A DNA stretch of 32,000 nt, taken from NCBI RefSeq assembly GCF_001997385.1, contig NZ_CP019633.1:1290001-1322000 (forward strand), in the 5' to 3' direction. The position numbers were made by a program, and so were the translations under genes. Shown here in pieces: positions 2,720 through 28,928 of this stretch. The first letter of the stretch is position 1; every line of letters begins with the position of its first letter. Origin of the DNA: Sedimentisphaera cyanobacteriorum. GTDB lineage: Bacteria > Planctomycetota > Phycisphaerae > Sedimentisphaerales > Sedimentisphaeraceae. The notes under the pieces were generated by a model. The model ran no database searches. It saw nothing but the letters and a program-made list of their open reading frames with translations, and was not told the DNA's origin.

Positions 2720-3358
2720 CTATTGATCCTCCCACATATCAAGCCAGCGTTTGTATGCATCGAACTCTAAGTTATTCTTATCCCATTGTACCTGTATTTC
2801 AAAAGTATTATCGTGTTCCAGTATTTCATTGAAGGCCTTAGATGATATTTGAACACCCCTTGGATTTGTACCTCTTTTAGGAAACTTTAGATAGTTATTG
2901 CATCCCAAATTTCCAAAAACTGATTTTTGAACTTCTACAGGAATATAGTAGAAAGAACCAGCATTATACCAGTTTATTCTGACAAAGATAATATCACAAA
3001 AAGGACGATAGCTTTCGCAAAATTCGCTCACTTTATCCCAATCAACAGTCCAAATCAGCTTAAAACCTGACTTCCCTCTGCCTGTTTGTGTTTTTATAGA
3101 AATTGGCTTTTTACATACCTCTACATCAACTTCTTTCTGGGTTATTGGGATGTCTGTCTTAACATTATCCCGACCGAATTTGTAAATAAGCATAGCAATG
3201 ATGATTCGCTCACGCAAAAAACCTACTTCCATCCCAATTTTTCCAGCACTTGAGCATTCCAATTCTGCTAGATGGAACATTGCCGGCAGTTTGCTTTTAA
3301 TCTTTTCTACAAGAGCTTCATCGGCTCTAATAGATTTTAGAACAGCGTTATCATCCAT
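2720..3358 (-). CDS. Putative type II restriction endonuclease (family not recognised)
   Basis: 212-aa ORF directly upstream of and co-oriented with the methyltransferase (1-nt gap). It shares the same roughly one-third GC. There is a possible PD-(D/E)XK-like stretch, TDIPITQKEVDVEVCKKPISIK. The call rests mainly on context. Confidence 0.5.
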   Translation of the reverse strand: MDDNAVLKSIRADEALVEKIKSKLPAMFHLAELECSSAGKIGMEVGFLRERIIIAMLIYKFGRDNVKTDIPITQKEVDVEVCKKPISIKTQTGRGKSGFKLIWTVDWDKVSEFCESYRPFCDIIFVRINWYNAGSFYYIPVEVQKSVFGNLGCNNYLKFPKRGTNPRGVQISSKAFNEILEHDNTFEIQVQWDKNNLEFDAYKRWLDMWEDQ

Positions 3359-5291: not shown

Positions 5292-7211
5292 TTATCTTCC
5301 GGCACCGCCGAAGGGGTCAAAACCGGCGCCTCCGCCGAACGGATCGAAGCCGCCCTGTCCTTCGCCGCCTCGCTGCATGCCGCGGTTGAATCCGCCTGAG
5401 CGGGATTCCTTAACCGTGATATCACGCTCGGCCTTTGCGGTTATCGTTTTGTAGGCCTTTGTCATTGAAGAGCTCCAGTTGCGGTTTCTAATCGGAACAA
5501 CGTTCACCTGCTGATCCTGAATATATACCATACTCTCATACTGCTTTTCTACGAAGTTTCCAAGCAGAGACCAAGTGCTGGTATCGACAGTGTCCACATA
5601 AACAGCGCCTGTTGCATAATCAAACTCTTCAGGTTCAGTTTCTTCTTCCTCCTGCTGATCTCTCTGCCCGGGGCGACGGCGTCTATCGTCCTTCTTCTCT
5701 TCAACTAACCTTCCAACGCTCTCTCCCGGTTTAACAAAGAAATCATGCAGATGCCACTGACCGAGCTCAAGCTTTGCAACCTTGCAGAGCACTCCGTTGG
5801 TTTTGCCGTCTGAAGGGAATATATACTGATTTTTAAGTATATCGAAGGATTTTGTGGGTTCTGTAAAATCACTCCAGAGAACCACATCATCATTGTATTC
5901 GCTGTACTGCTCGCTGAGCCATTCTTTGCCTGCTACAGGATTAAACACTCCGCATCTCATTCTGTATCGATAGGTTTGCCCGGGCGAAACAGAGTCGTCA
6001 TGCGTCCAAACATTTATAACTCCGGAAAGCTCTTCGAGCTGCTGCCCCTCTTCTATGAGGAGCTTTTGATATTCTTCTTCCAAATCCACCTGCGGCCTTT
6101 GCGGAGTTTGCTCTTCCTGTCTTTCATCTCTTCTTCGCGTTCTTCTGTCGCGGTTTGTGTCCGGCTGATTCATACCCGGGTTGAAGCCTGCGCCGCCTCC
6201 GCCGCCTCCGCCAAACGGATCAAAGCCTCCGCCTCCGAGATCCTGCGTGTCTCTCTGAGGCCTTCTTCTTCTGTCTTCTCTTTCTTCACTTTCCTCCCTG
6301 CGCGATTCTCTGAGCTCTCTGAGCTCTTCGCGTCTTTGCATCTCAAGCTGCTTTTCATATTCATCATATAGCGACGGGGGATACCATTTCTGATCCACGA
6401 CTGCAATATCGTACATCTGCGGCTGGAGTGCATTTCTCCAAACATCCGAGGTTCTAAACTGCGGCATAAGCACATTAAGCTTATTTGCCGCCTCTACATC
6501 GTAAACCTGCTGTATAAGCTCTGCATACTTATCCACCTTAGGCCTTTCGACGGTTTGCCATTCGCTCCAGCCTGAGGCCGTAAGCACCTGCCTCTGCATT
6601 TCAATGCCTGCAAAAACAGGACTTGCAAGGGTTTGGTCTCGCCATTCGGCCTTGATGCCGCGTCCTGCGAAAGTTCTTTTAAAGCTTGCAAGCAGCTCTG
6701 AAATATCAAACTCTGCCTGAAGGGTAACAACGTCAATATCTCTCGGTTCTACTTCAGCCTGTGAATAATCATTTGCCGGCTCGAGCTTGCTGAGAGGCAT
6801 AAACCCAACCGTTCGCACCTTCTGTGCTGCAAGATTTGCAAGCTGCGGTATATCAGGCAGTCCATACTCCCTGTCTCCCTGAATTGCATCGAGCTCTGCA
6901 GCGGGCACTCCAATGGGCTGGAGGTCGAGCCCGCCTAAGCTGCTGTCCATCATAGATTTGAAATCATCCAGCTTAGCAGAATACTGCGGCTTGGGTTCGG
7001 GGGAGGATTCAAGTTTATTCTTAATAGCCTGAGTGTCCTCAAGTATTTCTCTGTCAACGTTTGCAGGGGAAACCTCCTGAGAACCATACTTTACGGCATT
7101 AGGCCCCATAATTACAAAATAGAGCAGTACCGCAAGTGAAAACAGCACCGAAACACCCAGCACTATCCAGTGTACAATACGTTCTATAGGACTTTCTTTA
7201 GATCTACTCAT
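5292..7211 (-). CDS. Hypothetical N-terminally anchored protein with R/E-rich and Gly-rich FDPFGG tracts (operon gene 3)
   Basis: 639 aa. A K/R-containing N-terminal stub is followed by a TM (IVHWIVLGVSVLFSLAVLLYFVIM). The charged block RREELRELRESRREESEEREDRRRRPQRD precedes GGGGFDPFGGGGGGGAGFNPG, and the C-terminus ends GGFDPFGGGAGFDPFGGAGR. I recognised no known domain. Confidence 0.8.
   Translation of the reverse strand: MSRSKESPIERIVHWIVLGVSVLFSLAVLLYFVIMGPNAVKYGSQEVSPANVDREILEDTQAIKNKLESSPEPKPQYSAKLDDFKSMMDSSLGGLDLQPIGVPAAELDAIQGDREYGLPDIPQLANLAAQKVRTVGFMPLSKLEPANDYSQAEVEPRDIDVVTLQAEFDISELLASFKRTFAGRGIKAEWRDQTLASPVFAGIEMQRQVLTASGWSEWQTVERPKVDKYAELIQQVYDVEAANKLNVLMPQFRTSDVWRNALQPQMYDIAVVDQKWYPPSLYDEYEKQLEMQRREELRELRESRREESEEREDRRRRPQRDTQDLGGGGFDPFGGGGGGGAGFNPGMNQPDTNRDRRTRRRDERQEEQTPQRPQVDLEEEYQKLLIEEGQQLEELSGVINVWTHDDSVSPGQTYRYRMRCGVFNPVAGKEWLSEQYSEYNDDVVLWSDFTEPTKSFDILKNQYIFPSDGKTNGVLCKVAKLELGQWHLHDFFVKPGESVGRLVEEKKDDRRRRPGQRDQQEEEETEPEEFDYATGAVYVDTVDTSTWSLLGNFVEKQYESMVYIQDQQVNVVPIRNRNWSSSMTKAYKTITAKAERDITVKESRSGGFNRGMQRGGEGQGGFDPFGGGAGFDPFGGAGR
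5295..5400 (-). repeat. Coding Gly-rich repeat tract (2x FDPFGG plus FNRG) at the C-terminus of gene 3
   Basis: The minus strand encodes SGGFNRGMQRGGEGQGGFDPFGGGAGFDPFGGAGR*. Confidence 0.9.
6171..6239 (-). repeat. Coding Gly-rich repeat tract (FDPFGG plus FNPG) in the middle of gene 3
   Basis: The minus strand encodes LGGGGFDPFGGGGGGGAGFNPGM. Confidence 0.9.
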
Positions 7212-7248
7212 TATCTCTTCCCGTTAATTCTAAGAGGGTTATTTCGTT

Positions 7249-8436
7249 TTAATCTTCTTCGCCCTGCATCTTTGTTTTAATGCTTTCAGGGATAATTTCT
7301 TCGTAAGCCTTGCGGGCAAAAATATACTCGCATGATGCAGTCCACTGAACTACAGATTTATCGCCGTATCTGTAGTATTCGTGTGCCCTTGCATCACGCA
7401 ATATCGGCATAGAACTCCAATCGAGTATTGTAATCTGATTGCCCTGATAGGTCTTTTCTTCCTGATTTCCGTCCCAGCCGTAAAACTTATGCATCTTTTC
7501 AGAACAGAGCTCTTCAACAAATTCCGGTATTTTGCTCTTCTCTATTACCACTGACACGCTGAAATGTATTACGTCCAGAGTTTCGTTATCGCCCACCCTG
7601 TTTGTAACAGAGCTTGCCACAAGAATGGGCTTGTTGTTTTCTGTAACGTAGTAAGGCTCGTCTATAATCTTGGATTTTCCTGCTCCCCTTGAAACGTAGT
7701 CAACATTGTCCGCCCTTTTCTGAAATCTCACAGCGAGCAGTCTTTTTAAGGGCGAGGCAAACACGCTCTGGGCATCTGCGTTGGCCGCTTTAACAGACTT
7801 AACTACATCCTGATACACCCATAAGGCAACCTGAGAATTCCAGCAGTCCTGAACCGCAATATTCTCCGATACAAACTCGTACTTATGCCAGAAATCGTAC
7901 CACGGAAAATTCCTCGGGTTCATATAAACCGGGTTGGAAGCAGCTTTGTTTCTGCAGAGGGCTTCAACAATCGGATCCTCGCCTTCTTCACTTCTTGACC
8001 TTCTCTCGCGGGCAGCCTTAACATTCTTTATTTCCTGCTCGCTGGGAGCATCAACCCCGCCGGCATTTTCCACCATCTTCTCAACGGCTGTCCTGTACTT
8101 TTTAGAGTAGTCCGTAAACAGCTGCCTTGAAGTGTCGTCGGGCTTAGGAAAAATCTGATAGCTTATCAGCTCTCTCATTGTGGTCTGAAGGAACATATTC
8201 TCTATAGTTGATGCGTCTTCTTCATGCATATTCTGATAGGAAGCCTCAACCCTATACTGCTCTTCAGAAGGCGTTTGAGAAGCTAATCTGCGAACCTGCG
8301 AACCCATTGAAACGCTGTCCTGCATATTGTCTTTCAAAGCAGAATTCGAAAGCCACGTAAGCACGAGTACAACAAGGCCTGCCAATGCGATAGCAGACGG
8401 TATTATTATAGTTAAATATCTTTTTAGGAAATTCAT
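7249..8436 (-). CDS. Hypothetical N-terminally anchored protein (operon gene 2)
   Basis: 395 aa with an N-terminal TM (YLTIIIPSAIALAGLVVLVLTWL); the remainder is not low-complexity. It lies 23 nt downstream of the PilMN gene, with CTGGAG 6 nt before the ATG. No family recognised. Confidence 0.8.
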   Translation of the reverse strand: MNFLKRYLTIIIPSAIALAGLVVLVLTWLSNSALKDNMQDSVSMGSQVRRLASQTPSEEQYRVEASYQNMHEEDASTIENMFLQTTMRELISYQIFPKPDDTSRQLFTDYSKKYRTAVEKMVENAGGVDAPSEQEIKNVKAARERRSRSEEGEDPIVEALCRNKAASNPVYMNPRNFPWYDFWHKYEFVSENIAVQDCWNSQVALWVYQDVVKSVKAANADAQSVFASPLKRLLAVRFQKRADNVDYVSRGAGKSKIIDEPYYVTENNKPILVASSVTNRVGDNETLDVIHFSVSVVIEKSKIPEFVEELCSEKMHKFYGWDGNQEEKTYQGNQITILDWSSMPILRDARAHEYYRYGDKSVVQWTASCEYIFARKAYEEIIPESIKTKMQGEED

Positions 8437-8459
8437 TAAATTCTCCAGCTAAGCATCTA

Positions 8460-10706
8460 TTATTCAGCGACCTCTGTCTCAGAGTCGGCTTCGGGGGCAT
8501 CCTTCCAAAGGAACTTGAACTTCAGCTTGAACCAATGGTCTCTTATAACATACTCTTTCTCGCTGTAGTCGTCGAATTGGATAACGCCGCTCTCGTCTGT
8601 CTTTACCACCTTACTCATCTCTTCCCCTGTAACAGGGTCAATGAGAACTGTTTCTTCTTCGAGTATATCTTGGCCGGCCTTTGCCTTGCTTTCTTCGGGG
8701 TCTAACCTCTCAACAGTTTTTTCAACGCCGATACCTACAGGCATTTCGCTGCTGTCTGGGGAAACCGGGCCTGTTTCATATTCAAAGTGATTCGAGGATT
8801 CCTTCTGGAAGAGCTCTATGTCATACCTTTCGAAAATTTCTTTGAAATTCTCAAGGCGTGTAACAAATCCCCATTTATCCTTGTTATCACCAACGCCGGC
8901 AGGGTCCATAATCTTGCCGATTTCGCTGTAAGGGGAATACCCTTCAATCACAACAACAAATCCTGGGCCGTCTTCTTCTGTTTCTTCTTCATCGGTTCTT
9001 TGCTCAGTATCCATACCGCCCATTCCGCCGACAGTTCCGCCGCCGCCGAAGGGGTCGAAGCCGCCTCCTCCGCCGCCGCCAAACGGATCGAAGCCGCCTC
9101 CTCCGCCAAAGGGGCTGGCAGTTCTGTCTGTTCCGCCTCGCTCGGTCTGCTTTCTTGTCTCAGAAAAAGCGGTTGTTTTTACGCTGTCTGTATAATCTAT
9201 AACGAGGCTCGATACAAATATCTGCTTTCTTTCAGAACGTGGAGTCTGCTTGACCTTTTCAATGTTGCCGTTTTTGAAAGCCTCATAAAGCTCGGCCTGC
9301 TCTGGGTTGTTCTCAGCATTCGGCATACAGAAGCCTATACCCTGAACAACAGAGGGTATAATATCCCTGTTGTCAAAGTAATCCATATACTTTGCTATTT
9401 TCTCTTCAAGCTTTTCATCCTTCTGCTTCTGCTCATCGAGTTTGCTGATAGCATCCTGAGCTCTGTCTATTACCGCTTTGACTTCTCTTCTTGTATCCTG
9501 ATTTGCGCTGTAAGCAATCTTGTCTGCCATGCTTTTCCCGAAGGCTGCAATACAGGCTAAAAGGAAGATAAAAGCTGCTGCATACATATAAACAGACTTC
9601 TGCTTCCAAGCCATAGACCTCGCTACGTTTGTAGGCAGAAGATTTGCATTTATCGGGGCTTTACCCAATGCCTGAAGGCCGATTCCGTAAGCCACGCTGT
9701 TGTCTAATATGTTTTGGTGGAAGCTTGCCGCAGAAACTCCCGACCCCAGCTTAACCTTCTTGAATTCGGTGGGCATAAACATCTTGATCCCGAGACTCTG
9801 CTGGAGATACTTTGCAAGCCCCTGGAGCTTAAAGCCTCCGCCAAGGCCTATCACACGAACAAAATCTACCTTGTGGGCATCAGAATAGTATCCAAGTGAT
9901 CTCTGTATCTCTTCTGAAAGTTCTGTGTAGGTGCGGCGCATCGCCTGGAATATCTGCTTGGCATACTTGCTGGACTGTGAATTCCTTTTGAGCTTTTCGG
10001 CCTTCGCAAAATCAATCTTGAATGCGTCTGCGACAGCTTCTGTAAAATCATTGCCGCCCATAGGTATGCATCTTTGCCATACCGAATTTCCGGAACATAC
10101 CACAAGGTTTGTATTGTCCGTTCCGATATCAAGCAGAACTATAGCCTTGCCTGGATTCTTGAGCACATCAGGGAATTCATAGGCGGCATAGTTATAGATA
10201 GCCATCGGAGCCATCTGAACATAATTAACACGAATGCCGGCTTCAGTGTAATGGGAAAGGATAGACTCAACCAGCTCATTCTTGATTGCAAAGATTCCAA
10301 TAGATGTGTCCGGGGAATCCTCCTCGCTCATCAGCTCGTAATCCCATTCAACTTCGTGTATGTCGAAAGGAATCTGCTGAGCGGCCTCATGCCTTACCAG
10401 CTTTGAAAGCTGCTTTTTATCTACAGGAGGAAGCTTTACGAACCTGGCAAAGCTTGTCTGCCCGGGTACTGATATCGCCACCTCTTCACCTCGAAGATCG
10501 TGCTTTGAGGCGAATTTCTTTATCGTTTCTGCCGCATACTGCTCTTTCTGCTCTTCGCCCACTTCAGGAGCGCTGAGCAGCTGCCTGTGCTCGATGAGTT
10601 CTGATTCAAGAACCTCAACGGTTTCGCCGTCTAACCTGAGATGCAGTGCCCTCAAGGCTCGACTGCCCACATCTAAAGCCCATACGTATTCGCTGCCAGA
10701 TGCCAT
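8460..10706 (-). CDS. PilM-PilN fusion protein with a Gly-rich linker and an extra C-terminal periplasmic domain (operon gene 1)
   Basis: 748 aa. Residues 1 to ~350 are a PilM/FtsA-type actin-fold ATPase (WALDVGSRALRAL, LLDIGTDNTNLVV, VIGLGGGFKLQGL). Next come the PilN N-terminal signature INANLLP, a TM (VYMYAAAFIFLLACIAAFG) and a coiled coil (ISKLDEQKQKDEKLEEKIAKY). After that come SPFGGGGGFDPFGGGGGGGFDPFGGGG, an acidic linker and ~240 aa of unassigned sequence. AAGGAG lies ~10 nt before the ATG. Confidence 0.85.
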   Translation of the reverse strand: MASGSEYVWALDVGSRALRALHLRLDGETVEVLESELIEHRQLLSAPEVGEEQKEQYAAETIKKFASKHDLRGEEVAISVPGQTSFARFVKLPPVDKKQLSKLVRHEAAQQIPFDIHEVEWDYELMSEEDSPDTSIGIFAIKNELVESILSHYTEAGIRVNYVQMAPMAIYNYAAYEFPDVLKNPGKAIVLLDIGTDNTNLVVCSGNSVWQRCIPMGGNDFTEAVADAFKIDFAKAEKLKRNSQSSKYAKQIFQAMRRTYTELSEEIQRSLGYYSDAHKVDFVRVIGLGGGFKLQGLAKYLQQSLGIKMFMPTEFKKVKLGSGVSAASFHQNILDNSVAYGIGLQALGKAPINANLLPTNVARSMAWKQKSVYMYAAAFIFLLACIAAFGKSMADKIAYSANQDTRREVKAVIDRAQDAISKLDEQKQKDEKLEEKIAKYMDYFDNRDIIPSVVQGIGFCMPNAENNPEQAELYEAFKNGNIEKVKQTPRSERKQIFVSSLVIDYTDSVKTTAFSETRKQTERGGTDRTASPFGGGGGFDPFGGGGGGGFDPFGGGGTVGGMGGMDTEQRTDEEETEEDGPGFVVVIEGYSPYSEIGKIMDPAGVGDNKDKWGFVTRLENFKEIFERYDIELFQKESSNHFEYETGPVSPDSSEMPVGIGVEKTVERLDPEESKAKAGQDILEEETVLIDPVTGEEMSKVVKTDESGVIQFDDYSEKEYVIRDHWFKLKFKFLWKDAPEADSETEVAE
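9012..9116 (-). repeat. Coding Gly-rich repeat tract (SPFGG plus 2x FDPFGG) in the PilMN fusion
   Basis: The minus strand encodes SPFGGGGGFDPFGGGGGGGFDPFGGGGTVGGMGGM. Confidence 0.9.
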
Positions 10707-10779
10707 ATATCACAGTCTCCTTGCCCGCCCTGAAAAAGCAGGGCTTGTTTTTGGTTACAATTTTTATATCTTCTGGAGT

Positions 10780-12057
10780 ATGGTAACATTTTATATAACT
10801 ACGCTGGGATGTAAAGTAAACCAGTACGAAAGTCAGCAAATTAGGCAATTTTTGCGGTCAAAAGGGCTCAGTCAGACGTTCAAACCCGATAATGCCGACA
10901 TTGCTGTGGTGAGAACCTGCTGCATAACCAAAAACGCCTCATCCAAGAGCAGGCAGGCGATAAAGCGAATACACAAAGCCAACCCCGAATGCGTTATTAT
11001 TGCCAACGGATGCCTTATAGATTCAAAAACTGAAGAGAAACCTGAGGAATTGAATAATCTTATTTTCCAAAGAAAAAATTATCCGCTTGAGCAGGTTTTA
11101 GAGCAGGTTTACGGAAAACTGAAAACAGACGAAAAAATTTTTGATATAGGGCTGAAAAACTACGGCCTGCAGACAAGGGCTTTTCTGAAAGTACAGGACG
11201 GCTGCGACGGCTTCTGCAGCTACTGCATAATACCGAAAATCAGGACTGAAATTTCATCAAAACCTTTAGACAATATCTTGAAAGAGTCTCGGGAGCTTGT
11301 GAATTCCGGACACAAGGAGATTGTGCTTACCGGTGTGTTCCTCGGGGCGTACGGGAAAGAAACCGTAAAGAGAAACCGTTGGAACGAGAGGGTAAACCGT
11401 GAATTTCTGGAGCTCGTGGATTCAGTTGCGCAGACCCCAGGGCTGGAAAGGCTCAGGCTCAGCTCTGTAGAGCCGGGCGATATAAGCGAAGAGCTGATGG
11501 AGATTTATAAGTGCCGCGGAAACCTTGCCCCGCATTTCCATATCTCGCTTCAGTCCGGCAGCAGCCGGGTCTTGAAGCTTATGAACAGGCAGTACAGCAG
11601 CGAAACCTTCCGGCATAAGATTGATCTAATAAAATCAAGCCTGCATAAGCCGGCAGTTACTACTGATTTGATTGCAGGTTTTCCGGGAGAAACTGAGGCG
11701 GATTTTGAGGATTCTTTAGCGATGTGCAGATATTGCGGCTTCTCGAAAATGCACGTTTTCAGCTATTCCTCGCGTTCTGGAACAGGCGCTGCAAATATGA
11801 AGGGCCATCTGCCCGCCGGGGTAATTAAGCAAAGAGCAGCGAAGCTCTCACAAACAGGCGATAAGCTTGCTGAGGAATTCCGGGATTCTCTTGTCGGAGA
11901 AGAAGCGGGAGTAATAATCGAAGATCAGGAAAACCAGAGCGGCAAGTGCGAGAGATATCTCGACATAAAACTCACTGAAGGCTGCTTTGAGAGAGGCAAG
12001 CTGGTGCGTTCAGAAATCCTGCCCGGCGGGAAAGAGGCAAAACCGCTCTTCGAATGA
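10780..12057 (+). CDS. mtaB: Radical-SAM methylthiotransferase, MtaB-like (tRNA ms2t6A)
   Basis: The ORF track starts this gene at 10594, inside the opposite-strand PilMN gene. The conserved N-terminus begins at ATG 10780 (MVTFYITTLGCKVNQYESQ). It has the radical-SAM motif CDGFCSYC and a TRAM-like C-terminus. I chose MtaB over MiaB/RimO by eye from the N-terminal pattern. Confidence 0.75.
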   Translation: MVTFYITTLGCKVNQYESQQIRQFLRSKGLSQTFKPDNADIAVVRTCCITKNASSKSRQAIKRIHKANPECVIIANGCLIDSKTEEKPEELNNLIFQRKNYPLEQVLEQVYGKLKTDEKIFDIGLKNYGLQTRAFLKVQDGCDGFCSYCIIPKIRTEISSKPLDNILKESRELVNSGHKEIVLTGVFLGAYGKETVKRNRWNERVNREFLELVDSVAQTPGLERLRLSSVEPGDISEELMEIYKCRGNLAPHFHISLQSGSSRVLKLMNRQYSSETFRHKIDLIKSSLHKPAVTTDLIAGFPGETEADFEDSLAMCRYCGFSKMHVFSYSSRSGTGAANMKGHLPAGVIKQRAAKLSQTGDKLAEEFRDSLVGEEAGVIIEDQENQSGKCERYLDIKLTEGCFERGKLVRSEILPGGKEAKPLFE

Positions 12058-12165: not shown

Positions 12166-13394
12166 TTATAGGTCAAAGTTAAAAGTACCAACAGCTCGGT
12201 GGAAATCGGACAGTGCTGTATAATAATCCCACCCGGCTTGTGCCCTGTTGCCTTCAGCCCTGACCAGGGCGGTACGGGCGTCGAGCAGATCGTTAGTGGT
12301 GGATTGTCCGACCTGATATCTTTCCTGTGTAAGTCTCATACCTTCCTGTGCTTCTTCTACAATAGTTTTTGTAGCTTCCAGTGCCTGATATGCCTCTTTC
12401 AGTTTTGCAAAGTCATTCCAAACCTGCTGTTTAACTTCGAGAATCAGGTTTTGCAGAAGCGCCTCTTGCTCGGAAAGCTGAGCCTTAGCATGCCTGACAT
12501 TGTTGTCTCTGGCAAAGCCGTCAAAAAGCGGCAGTTCTACGAAGATTCCGACCATCCAGCTGTCATCATTCGGGAAAAAACCGTCGTCCTGTCGGCCGTA
12601 GCTTGCCCTTGCCGAAACATCCGGACCGTATTCACTTTTTGCTGCCTTAATATTACTCTTTGCTGCTGATATCCTGTTTAAGGCTGCTTTTAGTTCGGGA
12701 CGCAGATATACGGCTTTCTGTAATGCTGAATAAAGACGTTTTTTCGTAGGCTCCTGAAAAGCTGGGTGCTGATCATTGATACTTACAGGTATTTCAGCAG
12801 GTAAACCCATTGACCTGTTTAGTTGTCCCTGTGCTATTCGAATCATTTTTTGTGTCCGCACAAGCGACAGATTAGCCTCTGAAACATCAACCTTTACTCG
12901 TAAGACTTCTGCCTGGGGGATCTGGCCTGCGCTGCGACGCTTTTGGGCGATTTCCAGATGATTTTCAGCTTTTCTTAGGTTTTGCTTCGCAATCTGATTG
13001 GCATCCTGTGCTGCCAGATAGCCGTAATATGCCCTGTGGACATTCTGGATAATATCCTGGCGAATTTCTCTGGCGGTTTGCTCGCTTGCCTGCTGCCGAA
13101 ATAAAGCAGACATGAGTTCGGCTCGACGTTTTCCGCTGTCATATAAACTATAGCGAAGATTTAAACTTGCCGTCCAGTCCTCGGTTGGTCCGACGGTGCT
13201 TGACATGCCTGGCCTGGTAACCCCCTCCGGCAGGAATATATGTCTTTCCCATCGGCTGTAACCGCCGGTCGCGTCAATCTGGGGGTAATAGGATGAACGT
13301 CTCAGGCCGACAATAGCTTTTGCTGCCGCAACACCTTCTGATGCCGCACGCTGAAGAGGATTTTTATCCAGCGCTATCGCCACACACTGATTAG
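12166..13394 (-). pseudogene. TolC/OprM-family outer-membrane efflux protein, 5' end removed by the IS5-family element
   Basis: 405-aa ORF with only a GTG 'start'. It has OEP-type repeats (ALDKNPLQRAA, YYPQIDATGGY, LPLFDGFARDNNVRHAKAQ). In-frame upstream codons read FSGATNQC before VAIALDKNP and hit a stop at 13425-13423. There is no signal peptide, and family members normally start ~25-35 aa earlier. Confidence 0.7.
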
Positions 13395-14924
13395 TCGCCC
13401 CTGAAAAAGTTTTAAATTTTCCTTAAATTCTTTTCTGATAATGGTTTATATGATTGAAAAGCTTTCGAGATATGGTATAATATTGCAAGTGTTTATCTTA
13501 CATCTATCAAAACATTGCAATATTGGGACAAAATAATGAAGGCAAAAAACAATAAAGCAGGCTTACTCTTTCAGCAGCCATTAAAACCTCTTGTAAATCC
13601 TGATCACTCTTTAGTCCAACTCTCAGAGGTTGTCAACTGGTCTCGCTTTGAAGAGAAGTTTGGCAGTTTATACAGTCCTGATTCAGGCAGGCCGGCCAAG
13701 CCGATTCGCCTGATGGTCGGCCTTCAGTATCTCAAGTACACTTTCAATCTCAGCGATGAAGCAATCGTTGCCGGCTGGGTTGAGAATCCTTACTGGCAGT
13801 ATTTCTGCGGCGAAAGATACTTCCAGTACGAGCCTCCTATTGATCCAACCAGTATGACTAAGTGGCGTAATAAGGTAAAATCTGATGGTCTTGAAGAGCT
13901 GCTCGAAGAAACTATCAAAGCCGGCTTGAAGCTTAAGGTTATCAAAAAGAACGATTTCAACAAGCTCGTTGCAGATACAACCGTTCAGCAGAAGAACATC
14001 ACTTATCCGACCGACGCAAAACTCTGCCACAAACTGCGCATTAAGCTTGTAGATCTTGCAAAAGCATCAAAACTCCAACTTCGCCAAAGCTACGAAAGGG
14101 TTGGAAAAAGGGCGTATGTAATGCAGGGCAGGTATCGACGTGCAAGACAGTTCAAAAGAGCTAAAAAAGAAGTGAAGAAATTAAGGAACTACCTGCGGCG
14201 AATTACGAAAGAGGTCGAGCGGAATATAGCAGGCAATGAGCAGTTAAGAATAATTTTTGATACATTGCTTCAAGCCGCTAAGAAGCTTTTAGCCCAGACA
14301 AAGAAAAGCAAAAATAAGCTCTACAGTATTCACGAACCTCACGTCTGCTGCATTGGGAAAGGCAAAAGCCACAAGAAATATGAGTTTGGAAATAAGGTTG
14401 GAATTGTAACTACTGCCAAGAATAATTTTATCGTAGGAGCGTTGGGCTTTGAAGGAAACCCTTATGATGGCCATACTCTTCGGGCTAATCTGAAGCAGAC
14501 AATGAATTTAATCGGGAGAGAAAAGCTTGGAGATGTTTATGTTGATGGAGGATACAAGAAACATGGCTGCGAAGATATTGGAAATGTTGAAATTGTAGAA
14601 AAGGGCTGGCGAAAAAAGAAACGAAGTATCAAGAGGTGGATTAAGAGAAGATCGAGCATAGAACCAACGATAGGCCACCTCAAAGAAGACAACAGGTTGG
14701 GAAGAAACTTCTTGAAAGGTGTAGAAGGGGACAAAATGAACGCCCTCGGCAGCGCTTTTGGGTACAATATGCGTAAACTTCTAAAGAAGTTTACTTTTGC
14801 CTATATTTTTATGCTTAAAATTATTGAATTTTACAGAAATTTGGCAATGAAAAGCAAATTAAAGACTCGATTAGCCTGATATATTTTTTTAGTTTCCCCA
14901 AAATCATTGATTTTTCAGGAACGA
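13395..14924 (+). mobile_element. IS5-family insertion sequence (~1.53 kb)
   Basis: A single transposase gene is flanked by imperfect terminal inverted repeats. The left end TCGCCCCTGAAAAAG (13395-13409) matches the reverse complement of the right end, TCGTTCCTGAAAAAT (14924-14910), at 12/15 positions. The flanks are TTAG (13391-13394) and CTAA (14925-14928). Ends are uncertain by a few bp. Confidence 0.7.
13536..14879 (+). CDS. IS5-family DDE transposase
   Basis: InsH/DUF772-type N-domain (GRPAKPIRLMVGLQYLKYTFNLSDEA) and a DDE C-domain (VADTTVQQKNITYPTD, VYVDGGY, SIEPTIGHLKEDNRLGRNFLKG). I prefer ATG 13536 to the TTG at 13515 used by the ORF track. Confidence 0.92.
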   Translation: MKAKNNKAGLLFQQPLKPLVNPDHSLVQLSEVVNWSRFEEKFGSLYSPDSGRPAKPIRLMVGLQYLKYTFNLSDEAIVAGWVENPYWQYFCGERYFQYEPPIDPTSMTKWRNKVKSDGLEELLEETIKAGLKLKVIKKNDFNKLVADTTVQQKNITYPTDAKLCHKLRIKLVDLAKASKLQLRQSYERVGKRAYVMQGRYRRARQFKRAKKEVKKLRNYLRRITKEVERNIAGNEQLRIIFDTLLQAAKKLLAQTKKSKNKLYSIHEPHVCCIGKGKSHKKYEFGNKVGIVTTAKNNFIVGALGFEGNPYDGHTLRANLKQTMNLIGREKLGDVYVDGGYKKHGCEDIGNVEIVEKGWRKKKRSIKRWIKRRSSIEPTIGHLKEDNRLGRNFLKGVEGDKMNALGSAFGYNMRKLLKKFTFAYIFMLKIIEFYRNLAMKSKLKTRLA

Positions 14925-15848: not shown

Positions 15849-16725
15849 AGCCTGCCGAGCGAAAGGATTTTGCCAGGCAGGCACATTCTAAGGGCTTATG
15901 CGTGCAATCATCTTGTAAAGCAGCAGGCATCAGCCGGGGCAGTTTTTACTATACTCCTTCAAGAAACGATGATGCTGAGGTAAAAAGACAGATAGAGCTG
16001 GTAATAGATTCCCGTCCTCGACGCGGATTTCCAAAGATATTCGACAGTATCCGCCGCAAGGGATATAGCTGGAATCACAAAAAGGTTTATCGTGTTTATA
16101 AGGAAAATGAATTTCAGCTTAACAACCGTAAAAAGAATTTGATAAGGCAAATAGAGCGTAAACCTATGCCAGAAGCCACGAGAGCTAATGAGATATGGAG
16201 TATTGATTTTATGAGCGATAGTTTGAGTAATGGTCGGCCATTCAGGGCTTTCAACGTTATCGATGAGTTTAACCGTGAGGCATTGGATATTGAGATCGAC
16301 ACGAGCTTACCTTCGCTTCGCATAATTCGTAGCCTTGAATTAATAGGCTCTGATCGGGGTTTCCCCGCTTTATTCGCAGCGATAATGGGCCGGAATTTAG
16401 GAGCCTTCAATTTCGCAGGTTCTGCTGCCGAAACAGAATCAGGCACCGCCGTATAGAAGCAGGCAAGCCTCAGCAAAACAGTTTTATTGAACGATTCAAT
16501 CGGAGTTATCGAGAGGATATACTTGATATGTACAGTTTTAAGAATTTATCAGAAGCTCGTAATTTAACTTTAGATTGGCTTATAGAATATAATTATGAGC
16601 GTGGGCACGAATCACTGGGAGGGAAAGCTCCTGTAGAGTATGTCCGCAGTTTTTTGCCTTTCACCCCTCAAAATAATTCTGAAGGGGCAAAAGGAAAAAA
16701 CTGCTGTTTGAAGGAATTTGTCTAA
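15842..16725 (+). pseudogene. IS3-family transposase OrfB (rve/DDE integrase core), frame-broken
   Basis: The frame of 15902-16456 carries EIWSIDFMSDSLSNGRPFRAFNVIDEFNREALDIEID. The frame opening at 16354 carries FPRFIRSDNGPEF...IEAGKPQQNSFIERFNRSYREDILD...YNYERGHESLGGKAPVEY up to the stop at 16725. Joining the two needs a 1-nt indel within GGGGTTTCCCC (16356-16366). Confidence 0.8.
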
Positions 16726-25209: not shown

Positions 25210-26753
<1,544 letters not shown>

Positions 26754-27185: not shown

Positions 27186-28717
27186 TTAGACAATCTGCTT
27201 GGGGTATATGTTGTATTTTTTGATTTTGTAGCCCATCATCCTTTCTGTAAGCCCGAGCTGCTGGGCTGCCTTTCTCTGCTGGCCTCTGTTTTTCTTCAAG
27301 GCATCAACTATCATCTCCCTTTCGAAATTTTCCACCATCTCAGGCAGCGTTCTCCCCGGTGTTTTATGAGCTGCGGCCTCTTCAAACTGAAGCGAGGGGG
27401 GGAGGTGTTCACTTCGAATCACCTCTTCATTACAGAGCAGGACCGCCCTTTCAATGCAGTTTTCCAGCTCCCTTATATTCCCGGGCCAGTGGTAGCTTGT
27501 CAGCATATTGATAGCTGGGGTGGAAAGGCGTGTGATGTTTTTGCTGTTTTCTTTGCTGTATTTCTCAAGGAAGTAGTCTGCGAGGAGCATAATGTCATCC
27601 TTGCGTTCTCTGAGCGGTGGAAGGAAGATTGGGAAAACGTTGATCCTGTAGTATAGGTCTTCGCGGAAAACGCCGTTTTTGATATCTTCCTCGAGGTTGC
27701 GGTTTGTTGCAACTACAATTCGTACGTTTGTCTTTATTGTTTCGTTCCCTCCAACTCTCTCAAACTCCTTGAACTGTATTGCCCGAAGGAGCTTCACCTG
27801 AAGGTTCAGCGAGAAATCGCCAATCTCATCGAGGAATATTGTGCCTCCGTTTGCCCGTTCAAAGCGCCCGATTTTCCTGTCTGAAGCGCCTGTGAACGCC
27901 CTTTTTCATGCCCGAAAAGCTCGCTCTCCAGAAGCGATTCAGGAAGGGCTGTGCAATTTATCTTTATAAACGGCTTATCTGCTCTGAGGCTGCTGTAGTG
28001 GATTGCGTGGGCGATAAGGTCTTTACCTGTCCCGCTCTCGCCCCTTATCATAACAGTAGCATTGCTTTGGGCAACCTGCTCCACGAGACGGAAAACCTCC
28101 TGCATAGCGTTGCTCGAGCCTATCATATTGTGTATTTTGAAACGGTTTCTCAGCTGCTGACGAAGCTTGAGGTTTTCCTCCTGCCAGCCGCGTTTCTCCT
28201 TTGTGTAGAGGTCGTTTATCTTAACTGCCTGGCCAACCATCGTTGCTATAACGTTCAGGATTCTTGCGTCGTTTTGAAGGCTTTTTCCAGAGCTGGTTTC
28301 CTTGCTAACGCTCATCGCGCCGGCAGTTTTGCCTTCAACCTTTATCGGAACGCAGATAAATGCCATCTTCTTGTCTTCCTTAGGTTTTCTCTCGCCCGCT
28401 TTGGCGAGGAAGCGTTTGTCCTTCTGGATATCAGGCACAATCACCGGCTCGCCTGACTGATAAACTATGCCTGTTATCCCCTCACCCTCTCGGTATTCAA
28501 TCTGCTTTTGCAGCTCTGAATCAATATTATGAGCGACGGCTATTTTTATAGTTTCAGAATCAGGATCGAGCAGATTTATAGTTCCCATCTGAAGCGCCAT
28601 ATGCACCTCAAGGGCCTCGAGCACGCCTGCGAGTGTTCGTTTGAGTTCCAGCGATTCGGCAAGGGCTCGGGCTATACGGCTGAGCAGCTCGGTTTCGTGA
28701 ATCCGTCTGTAAGGCAT
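27186..28717 (-). pseudogene. GAF-domain sigma-54-dependent transcriptional activator (NifA-like architecture), split by a 1-nt frame break
   Basis: The upstream ORF holds a GAF domain and the start of the AAA+ domain ([29 protein letters not shown]). The downstream frame continues exactly with [42 protein letters not shown], then has the GAFTGA-type loop, [19 protein letters not shown] and a Fis-type HTH ([21 protein letters not shown]). The break lies in CCCTTTTT (27899-27906). The start ATG at 28717 has GAAGGAG 5 nt upstream. This could be a sequencing error rather than real decay. Confidence 0.85.
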
Positions 28718-28928
28718 AAAAGCTCCTTCACTTATTGAAATTGCAATTGGGTTTTTGAGTAAGCCTTTATCACCTAATCTATACAAATATGTAATTAGTT
28801 CAATTAAAAAATACTTTTTTGTTTATTGTTTTAATGAAAAATTCAAATTTAGCTCTTTTAATATATACTCTGCTTATGTATAATAAAAATTCAAAAACAG
28901 ATTCAATTTTTAAGCTGTCCGGCAAGGT

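Follow-up and report, generated by a model that had tools for sequence, protein, structure and literature searches.

Why should two different proteins of one operon carry the same hexapeptide, repeated within glycine-rich tracts? The question is raised by a 32,000-nucleotide (nt) stretch of Sedimentisphaera cyanobacteriorum DNA (contig NZ_CP019633.1, positions 1,290,001 to 1,322,000 of the forward strand; hereafter the window), in which FDPFGG occurs exactly five times, twice in a 748-amino-acid (aa) fusion of a PilM domain, a transmembrane (TM) segment and a periplasmic part, and three times in a 639-aa bitopic protein encoded close by. An earlier note, made by reading this DNA alone, had pointed out the five units, which we confirmed, and had proposed that they link the two proteins, a proposal that is supported, as regards a functional link, by co-variation of the motif-bearing tracts across the family. 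The tracts of both proteins are probably recognised by one another or by a single common partner and, judging from the sequences compared, FDPFGG appears to be the form taken in Sedimentisphaera by a trait that runs through envelope machines of Phycisphaerae and Planctomycetota. As to how recognition might work, we tentatively favour like-with-like cohesion of the tracts that ties the two subunits together in the periplasm, with a probability of about 0.45. The copies are located as follows.

9102-9119, minus strand: degenerate SPFGG ahead of the two FDPFGG units in the 748-aa protein
9075-9092, minus strand: FDPFGG copy 1, residue 539 of the 748-aa protein
9042-9059, minus strand: FDPFGG copy 2, residue 550 of the 748-aa protein
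6207-6224, minus strand: FDPFGG copy 3, residue 330 of the 639-aa protein, mid-chain
5331-5348, minus strand: FDPFGG copy 4, residue 622 of the 639-aa protein, C-terminal
5304-5321, minus strand: FDPFGG copy 5, residue 631 of the 639-aa protein, C-terminal

A six-frame scan of the window revealed no further FDPFGG, [FY]DPFG or DPFGG; the 395-aa protein encoded between the two motif-bearing proteins has no motif, and none was found beyond these two proteins in the approximately 54 kb of Sedimentisphaera DNA scanned. When residues were shuffled 200,000 times within the three tracts, a single FDPFGG arose in 0.15% of shuffles and two or more in none, and no hexamer with two or fewer Gly exceeded 2 copies. 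Because the shuffles never yielded two copies, the repeated motif is not explained by tract composition. The five units differ only by synonymous codons (TTC/TTT, GAT/GAC, CCG/CCC and GGC/GGA/GGT), the third-position differences being those described before.

The genes belong to a module of three co-directional minus-strand genes, after which lies pgi.

8460-10706, minus strand: gene for the 748-aa PilM-TM-periplasmic fusion ('PilMN', GspL-like architecture; open reading frame (ORF), Pfam PilM_2, TIGR01175, AlphaFold2 (AF2), Foldseek)
9669-10706, minus strand: cytoplasmic PilM (actin-like) domain, residues 1-346 of the 748-aa protein (profiles, AF2, Foldseek)
9537-9593, minus strand: single TM segment, residues 372-390 of the 748-aa protein, within the long helix 359-444 (hydropathy 2.18, AF2)
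8484-8963, minus strand: folded C-terminal periplasmic domain, residues 582-741 of the 748-aa protein, starting with the conserved GFVV.IEGYSPY (AF2 predicted local-distance difference test (pLDDT) 81-94)
7249-8436, minus strand: gene for the 395-aa bitopic middle protein, motif-free (ORF)
5292-7211, minus strand: gene for the 639-aa bitopic partner, the third protein (ORF; unannotated family)
6267-6380, minus strand: long Arg/Glu-rich helix, residues 278-315 of the 639-aa protein, adjoining the mid-chain tract (AF2)

The N-terminal 345 or 346 residues of the 748-aa protein form a true PilM domain by sequence and by fold: PF11104 scored 120.9 bits (cut-off 27) over residues 11-345, TIGR01175 scored 146.6 bits (cut-off 133), and Foldseek matched Pseudomonas aeruginosa PilM (5eou; E = 1e-25, TM-score 0.82), with FtsA structures as the second-ranked matches. 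In the AF2 model (mean pLDDT 81), this domain is followed by the long helix with the sole hydrophobic segment, a strand at residues 497-506, a loop at 519-576 and the domain at 582-741. Of the label 'PilMN' given previously, the PilM half is thus upheld by profile and fold; the PilN, PilO, PilP and GspM models matched none of the three module proteins, and the name 'PilN' for the second half of the fusion is suggested by architecture only. Likeness to GspL is likewise one of domain architecture only, with the GspL model PF05134 (T2SSL) at 18.2 bits, under its cut-off of 25.5. The 639-aa protein was modelled (mean pLDDT 76) as an N-terminal TM helix, an alpha/beta domain, the Arg/Glu helix, a disordered tract, a beta-rich domain and a disordered tail; the extreme Arg/Glu block remarked on before occupies residues 290-320 and falls largely within that helix. 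Neither this protein nor the 395-aa protein matched Pfam, NCBIfam or the PDB by single sequence or profile, and Foldseek gave nothing below E = 0.1 for the 639-aa protein. One strongly hydrophobic segment is present in each protein (residues 372-390, 8-26 and 16-34 of the 748-, 395- and 639-aa proteins), lying upstream of the motifs in both motif-bearing proteins as had been expected. Given the PilM domain and the single TM segments, it is reasonable to infer that all motif copies lie in the periplasm.

The three genes keep a constant order, in which the PilM fusion is followed by a protein of 400-480 aa and this by one of 610-760 aa; Sedimentisphaera salicampi, Anaerohalosphaera lusitana and all metagenomic loci that extend sufficiently upstream share it. 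More than 2800 relatives of the 748-aa protein were found at E <= 1e-30, and the family of the 639-aa protein comprises 3017 clusters at 50% identity. Of the three proteins, the middle one, whose position between the others never varies, shows the highest conservation and has many invariant residues. The closest relatives are those of S. salicampi, the 639-aa protein being 92% and the 748-aa protein 95% identical. The window contains no further gene for pili or secretion, and no other pilus gene adjoins the module in related loci L001-L005; type II secretion system (T2SS)-type F and G genes lie close to it in locus L006.

All five FDPFGG copies fall into three tracts.

8979-9152, minus strand: loop, residues 519-576 of the 748-aa protein, between two periplasmic strands, with SPFGG and two FDPFGG followed by a GGMGGM remnant (pLDDT ~29)
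6102-6257, minus strand: mid-chain tract, residues 319-370 of the 639-aa protein, with FDPFGG copy 3 and a degenerate GFNPG (pLDDT 34-43)
5295-5399, minus strand: C-terminal tail, residues 605-639 of the 639-aa protein, with GGFNRG and FDPFGG copies 4 and 5 (pLDDT 32-37)

The AF2 models thereby predict disorder for all three tracts (pLDDT 28-43, everywhere below 50, as the earlier note had anticipated), each flanked by confidently modelled domains, and the loop of the 748-aa protein corresponds to a hypervariable block of columns in a 71-sequence alignment. Each tract holds 1-3 motif units, and 13 Phe are found in the approximately 110 tract residues of both proteins; the Phe residues stand in poly-Gly spacers, yet every unit contains Asp, and the motifs of relatives are built on Met, on Arg-Gly or on acidic residues. 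Met/Gly strings follow the FDPFGG units, TVGGMGGMD in the fusion (9000-9041, minus strand) and GFNPGMNQ in the partner (6171-6206, minus strand). They look like remnants of the GMxGM type of the nearest relatives, as though the Phe type had displaced an ancestral Met type.

Across the family, FDPFGG itself is not conserved. Among 283 family proteins, [FY]DPFG was found only in the Sedimentisphaera pair and in none of the other 281, so the reading of FDPFGG as a short linear motif needs revising: the hexapeptide is invariant within Sedimentisphaera only and lacks the conservation across orthologues of a classical short linear motif. Absence from orthologous operons was the outcome that the earlier note had named as counting against its idea; the idea survives, for the orthologues carry matched motifs of their own at the same sites. 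In the next-closest relatives (40-57% identity), both proteins bear GMGMPGM/GMDMGM repeats at these three sites, and other lineage-specific tract motifs include GMPGM, PPGYG, GGRFGG, KMYEMMMG and MMDPMMMQMMMRGG. Reading of all loci revealed at least 15 such motif 'dialects', each common to both proteins of one genome, among them KMYEMMMGGG, EEIMRIMMEG, GxxWM, YDEYDE..AM.Y, FDEFDEEEE, GMPPGMMGMP, EYEMMMEME, DDMPRPGRG and E.AF..MME.RGGR.

To put numbers on this matching, we used 36 loci dereplicated at < 70% identity. The fusion loop and the partner tail share 29 informative 5-mers within loci, compared with 0.027 per cross-locus pair; the loop and the partner mid-tract share 17, and the mid-tract and tail of the partner 13, numbers that were reached in 0 of 5000 permutations for each of the three comparisons. 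Local alignment scores had a median of 32 within loci and 22 across loci, and 47% of the same-locus scores lay above the cross-locus 95th percentile. Tract composition is correlated between the two proteins (rho 0.79 for Met, 0.72 for Tyr), whereas the folded remainder shows no such correlation. Per 1000 aa, the partner tracts contain 16.3 loop 5-mers, the remaining parts of the three proteins 0.053 and the flanking ORFs (91,000 aa) 0.066, so that the density in the partner tracts is about 300 times that in the remaining parts or the flanking ORFs. Tracts rich in such motifs were present in both proteins at 14 loci, in neither at 16 and discordantly at 6 (Fisher p = 1.4e-4). In a set of 113 independent representatives (50% identity), 46 5-mers recur in both the mid-tract and the tail of one and the same chain, where permutations give 5.3. 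The motifs of the two motif-bearing proteins are absent from the operon's middle protein. The co-variation extends across the whole family, and these comparisons show the three tracts to be functionally coupled.

The matching also held in a prospective test, in which PilM fusions with a distinctive loop were picked from the alignment first and the partner operon was read afterwards. In A. lusitana, the loop PGMFGPGMDPGMFGPGG is met by MMPGMFGPGMDPG in mid-chain and PGMFPPGMFGPGGG at the C-terminus of the partner, PGMFGPGMDPG being common to both proteins. Locus L209 pairs the loop GGRFGTLGGRFGGRFGG with the tail GGRLGGRMGGRMGGRTGRMGG (GGRFGG versus GGRMGG repeats), and at locus L210 the loop GMMDPMMMQMMMRGGPG and the tail GMMDPMMMQMMMRGGAG share 15 identical residues, GMMDPMMMQMMMRGG. 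The match at locus L212 is looser, of GGGMM/MPGG type in both proteins; two further contigs ended ahead of the partner tracts. Near-identical stretches of 9-15 residues in both proteins were found at L005, L210 and L157.

Comparison with the sister species revealed what is kept in these tracts. S. salicampi has the same amino acids in all five FDPFGG cores, and the 30 codons of these cores show about 10-11 synonymous and 0 non-synonymous differences, which bears out the earlier proposal of selection on the peptide. Adjoining residues of the tracts do differ (TVGGMGGMDTEQ versus TMGGMQTGAEGEQ, for instance), and the Gly runs differ by single-codon (3-nt) indels, as expected of the slippage-prone runs pointed out before. 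The synonymous-only changes of the cores, next to altered neighbours, therefore indicate purifying selection on the peptide core within a tract of labile length. Family-wide, matched motifs use the same codon at 149 of 360 identical degenerate residues, compared with 133 expected from codon usage; near-random codon use therefore indicates, for most lineages, drift of the DNA beneath a preserved peptide match. The claim that DNA duplication is not the source of the likeness accordingly stands in part: synonymous sites are mostly randomised, but copying is visible in some lineages, with 43 of 45 nt identical between tracts at L210 and 26 of 27 nt at L005. In the window, the loop and the tail use the same codon at 16 of 22 residues against 8.6 expected, and orthologous units of the two Sedimentisphaera species are not always each other's nearest DNA relatives. 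Sequence seems to have been transferred occasionally between sites and then held by selection. Ongoing gene conversion as the sole cause was rejected family-wide by the codon test and is retained as a contributor.

The mechanism that we favour would start from an envelope machine encoded by the fixed three-gene module, that is, the PilM fusion, the bitopic protein of about 400 aa and the bitopic protein of about 640 aa. Three segments, predicted to be disordered and putatively periplasmic, bear the 'sticker' motifs: the loop of the fusion, and the mid-chain linker and C-terminal tail of the third protein. Stickers are aromatic residues or Met, often accompanied by an acidic residue and spaced by Gly or Pro, and their sequence, while changing fast between lineages, is kept alike at the three sites of each genome under purifying selection on the peptide. 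Multivalent, low-affinity mutual sticking of the segments, as in FG nucleoporins or the PEX13 YG domain, may then join the flexible periplasmic parts of two subunits of an oligomeric assembly. We favour cohesion because one conserved pocket is unlikely to follow FDPFGG, GMPGM, PPGYG, GGRFGG and acidic amphipathic strings alike; Phe, Tyr, Trp, Met, Arg-Gly and acidic-helical chemistries all occur on scaffolds that are 45-55% identical. Self-recognising segments can drift provided that they drift jointly, which fits such turnover more easily than a conserved pocket does.

Several points weigh against cohesion. AF2 single-chain models leave the tracts undocked, and at 1-3 units per tract the valency is far below that of FG or YG domains, so that a network would need ring oligomerisation, which is assumed by analogy with PilM/N/O. 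FDPFGG bears Asp, whereas cohesive FG spacers are usually uncharged. About half of the lineages have sticker-rich tracts in neither protein, and the tracts are thus dispensable for the core function. Cohesion driven by composition alone needs no near-identical sequences such as those of some lineages, and part of the similarity comes from copying, the L210 and L005 matches being near-identical in DNA. The permutation p-values, finally, ignore phylogenetic relatedness among the loci; given the number of distinct dialects, a purely phylogenetic artefact is unlikely.

The same co-variation and purifying selection would also be seen if the three tracts docked on one site of another component, such as a folded periplasmic domain of the module, a secretin, a pilin-like subunit or another envelope protein, with the receptor itself changing between lineages. 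The near-identity over 9-15 residues at L005, L210 and L157 looks sequence-specific rather than merely compositional, and the tail copies occupy the very end of the chain, where docking peptides are typically found. Such a receptor, however, would have had to re-specify from Phe-Asp-Pro to Met-Pro-Gly, Tyr-Gly, Arg-Gly and acidic-helical ligands on scaffolds of 45-55% identity. The middle protein, the best-conserved candidate, has many invariant residues and is a poor fit with a fast-changing ligand; the motif is missing in about half of the lineages, and AF2 docks no tract on domains of the same chain. On balance we regard a shared third partner as rather unlikely, though worth keeping in view.

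A second alternative does away with binding altogether. The tracts would be entropic or elastic linkers that span a variable periplasm, selected for disorder and rough composition only, and their likeness would come from lineage-wide linker preferences and from copying by gene conversion or slippage among three short stretches. This account is in line with the highly variable tract length, the absence of tracts from about half of the lineages, the Gly-run indels between close species and the abductin- or resilin-like repeats (GGFGGGMP, PPGYG) of relatives, and the copying it requires has left the traces given above at L210, at L005 and in the loop, tail and orthologous units of Sedimentisphaera. 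What it fails to accommodate is the codon test: matched peptides with near-random codons mean that copying is rare and the peptide selected. Nor would selection for disorder or elasticity keep exact cores like FDPFGG, free of non-synonymous change in all five copies while adjacent residues change, and neither the flanking genes, the folded parts of the same proteins nor the middle protein of the same operon has taken up the motifs. We therefore consider non-binding spacers unlikely.

A compositional or chance artefact of Gly/Phe-rich low complexity, to which GGFDPFGG in DnaJ G/F regions and in small Gly/Tyr/Phe-rich Bacillota proteins (among the matches listed) might point, is effectively excluded by the shuffles, by cores that are invariant between species despite saturated synonymous change and by the family-wide co-variation, and just 251 of 5.8 billion protein clusters shared words with a synthetic FDPFGG-repeat query, which gave one irrelevant match and is uninformative as a search.

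Two more specific roles were considered and rejected. Copper binding by Met-rich motifs (MxM/GMPGM) does not serve as a general explanation, the Sedimentisphaera, PPGYG, GGRFGG and acidic-helical types being without Met ligands. Modification of the motif Asp by a neighbouring RimO/MiaB-type enzyme was discarded because most lineages lack the Asp and the tracts are placed outside the cytoplasm.

If like-with-like cohesion of the tracts is correct, aromatic or Met stickers in Gly-rich assemblies would extend from eukaryotic pores to the bacterial periplasm, and the module would connect to machinery of the Planctomycetota-Verrucomicrobiota-Chlamydiota (PVC) bacteria that in Akkermansia is tied to host glycan uptake. 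A bolder extension, which we regard as improbable, is that a ring machine with a dozen or so copies of each subunit, and hence about a hundred matched stickers, forms a PVC-specific periplasmic meshwork, a cohesive counterpart of the FG and YG selective phases. PVC bacteria are thought to take up polysaccharide or mucin fibres; such a meshwork could gate or hold macromolecular cargo of this kind, and the lineage dialects would keep it self-compatible. Whatever the mode of recognition, joint change of the tracts in two subunits while synonymous sites drift is an unusually clean signature of a mutual or single reader, and swapping the motif in one or both proteins offers a direct experimental handle. 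The module is widespread (about 3000 clusters of the third protein at 50% identity, more than 2800 relatives of the PilM fusion), two of its three proteins have no family assignment, and the matched motifs caution against dismissing such tracts as meaningless low complexity in annotation. Our literature search found nothing relevant on matched low-complexity tracts in pilus or secretion machines, or on this planctomycete module.

Upstream, the module has a conserved divergent neighbour.

10594-12057, plus strand: gene for a MiaB/RimO-family radical-SAM methylthiotransferase (Pfam)

A gene of this type stands head-to-head with the first module gene in 10 of 10 gene-called loci in which the upstream side is present, and the arrangement was noted at L001, L002, L004-L006 and L207-L212; it is a conserved neighbour with no evident functional link. 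The start of its longest ORF (10594) overlaps the start of the PilM fusion (10706) by about 110 nt, and the true start probably lies further downstream. In S. salicampi (CP021023; L001, 991-3417), mreB-mreC-mreD are found past the radical-SAM gene, some 3 kb upstream of the module. On that side the window has a TolC-like gene and insertion-sequence elements, and the neighbourhood has therefore been rearranged between two close species. The TolC-like outer-membrane efflux gene is short (12166-13383, 405 aa, GTG start) and lies beside insertion-sequence remnants, namely a DUF772 and DDE_Tnp_1 transposase (13515-14879) and an HTH_21 and partial rve fragment (15902-16456). A full OEP-adaptor-ABC set directly follows the module in the related locus L002.

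Elsewhere in the window, a complete 16S rRNA gene (25210-26747, plus strand; Rfam RF00177, 1457 bits) is not followed by a 23S gene before the window ends; what comes next is a sigma-54 activator in the opposite orientation and then a type III glutamine synthetase. The rRNA gene thus seems to be unlinked, an arrangement common in Planctomycetota. The activator, of NtrC type (27186-28786, minus strand), is split over two ORFs in different frames, one (27806-28786) encoding the GAF domain and the first half of the AAA+ domain and the other (27186-27797) the rest of AAA+, the lid and HTH_8, which represents a frameshift, a pseudogene or a sequencing error. At the other end of the window, a ThaI-family restriction endonuclease gene (2720-3358, minus strand; PF15514, 265 bits) overlaps an N4/N6 DNA methylase gene (1819-2760) by 41 nt, forming a compact type II restriction-modification pair that adjoins an ECF-type sigma factor gene (1134-1652).

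The motif string is also found outside the module. Matches listed in a DNA scan for GGFDPFGG were mostly out-of-frame chance hits in high-GC genomes, plus DnaJ G/F regions; among them were the G/F regions of many DnaJ proteins (also on contigs L016, L028, L049, L064 and L074) and tandem GGFDPFGGFDPFGGFDPFGG in small Gly/Tyr/Ser-rich Bacillota proteins (metagenome-assembled contigs L021 and L066). The hexapeptide recurs independently in unrelated Gly/Phe linkers. The DnaJ G/F region and the module tracts are both flexible Gly/Phe linkers that can contain GGFDPFGG; unlike the tracts, which lie beyond a TM segment in proteins without a DnaJ Pfam match, the G/F region is cytosolic and follows a J domain. 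This resemblance, and that of the small Bacillota proteins, is one of composition only and not of family.

Elastomeric proteins offer a second point of comparison, with repeats such as GGFGGMGGGX in abductin and the PGYG type in resilin and others. The GGFGGGMP, GMPGM and PPGYG repeats of relatives are similar, and their Gly/Pro content and disorder would suit an entropic spring. The module arrays, by contrast, are very short, bacterial and putatively periplasmic, and elasticity alone leaves the same sequence in two different proteins unexplained.

Among envelope machines, the module resembles PilM-PilN-PilO(-PilP) and GspL-GspM in its true PilM fold, in the fusion of an actin-like domain, a TM segment, a coiled coil and a periplasmic domain, which corresponds to GspL or to PilM plus PilN, and in the two further bitopic proteins that come next in the operon. 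It differs from PilM-N-O-P in that PilM and the TM and periplasmic part form a single protein, with no separate PilN and no PilB/C/Q or pilin set adjoining. Pilin, ATPase, platform and secretin genes are absent from the window and from most related loci, and the partners, at about 400 and 640 aa, are far larger than their counterparts and match no known fold. To our knowledge, matched low-complexity tracts have no precedent in PilN, PilO or PilP.

Another system for comparison is the MUL2 locus of Akkermansia, amuc_1099-1102, in which amuc_1101 encodes the PilM-like MUL2B and amuc_1102 the pilin-like MUL2A, and which has been implicated in mucin uptake and attachment (PMC13174399). There too, a PilM-like protein of a PVC bacterium with a TM segment and a C-terminal extension is followed by two uncharacterised genes. 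The Amuc_1101 equivalog model NF045709 aligns, through model positions 6-458 of 608, to residues 7-458 of the 748-aa protein with 249 bits, far under the cut-off of 650, and its last 150 positions are unmatched; the 748-aa protein is thus a distant relative, not a member, of the Amuc_1101 (MUL2B) family. No pilin-like or secretin gene adjoins the Sedimentisphaera module, and neither the middle nor the third protein showed similarity, by sequence or profile, to the solved structure of Amuc_1100.

The nearest mechanistic parallels are the FG domains of nucleoporins such as Nup98, of GLFG type (PMC4283134), and the YG domain of PEX13 (PMC9795577), which associate through aromatic residues in Gly-rich spacers. 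Those domains have dozens of units and high valency where the module tracts have 1-3, and the tracts are placed in the bacterial periplasm. The commonest sticker family-wide is Met (GMPGM), the Sedimentisphaera unit contains Asp and Pro, and some lineages show exact matches of 9-15 residues, which FG and YG domains do not. A gel, a selective phase and a transport-receptor counterpart belong to FG and YG domains, whereas the module is known from sequences alone. In both cases, disordered segments on membrane-associated scaffolds hold aromatic residues in Gly-rich spacers, some relatives of the module even using Tyr-Gly (PPGYG), sequence diverges between species while its character is kept, and different chains of one assembly share the same type of repeat.

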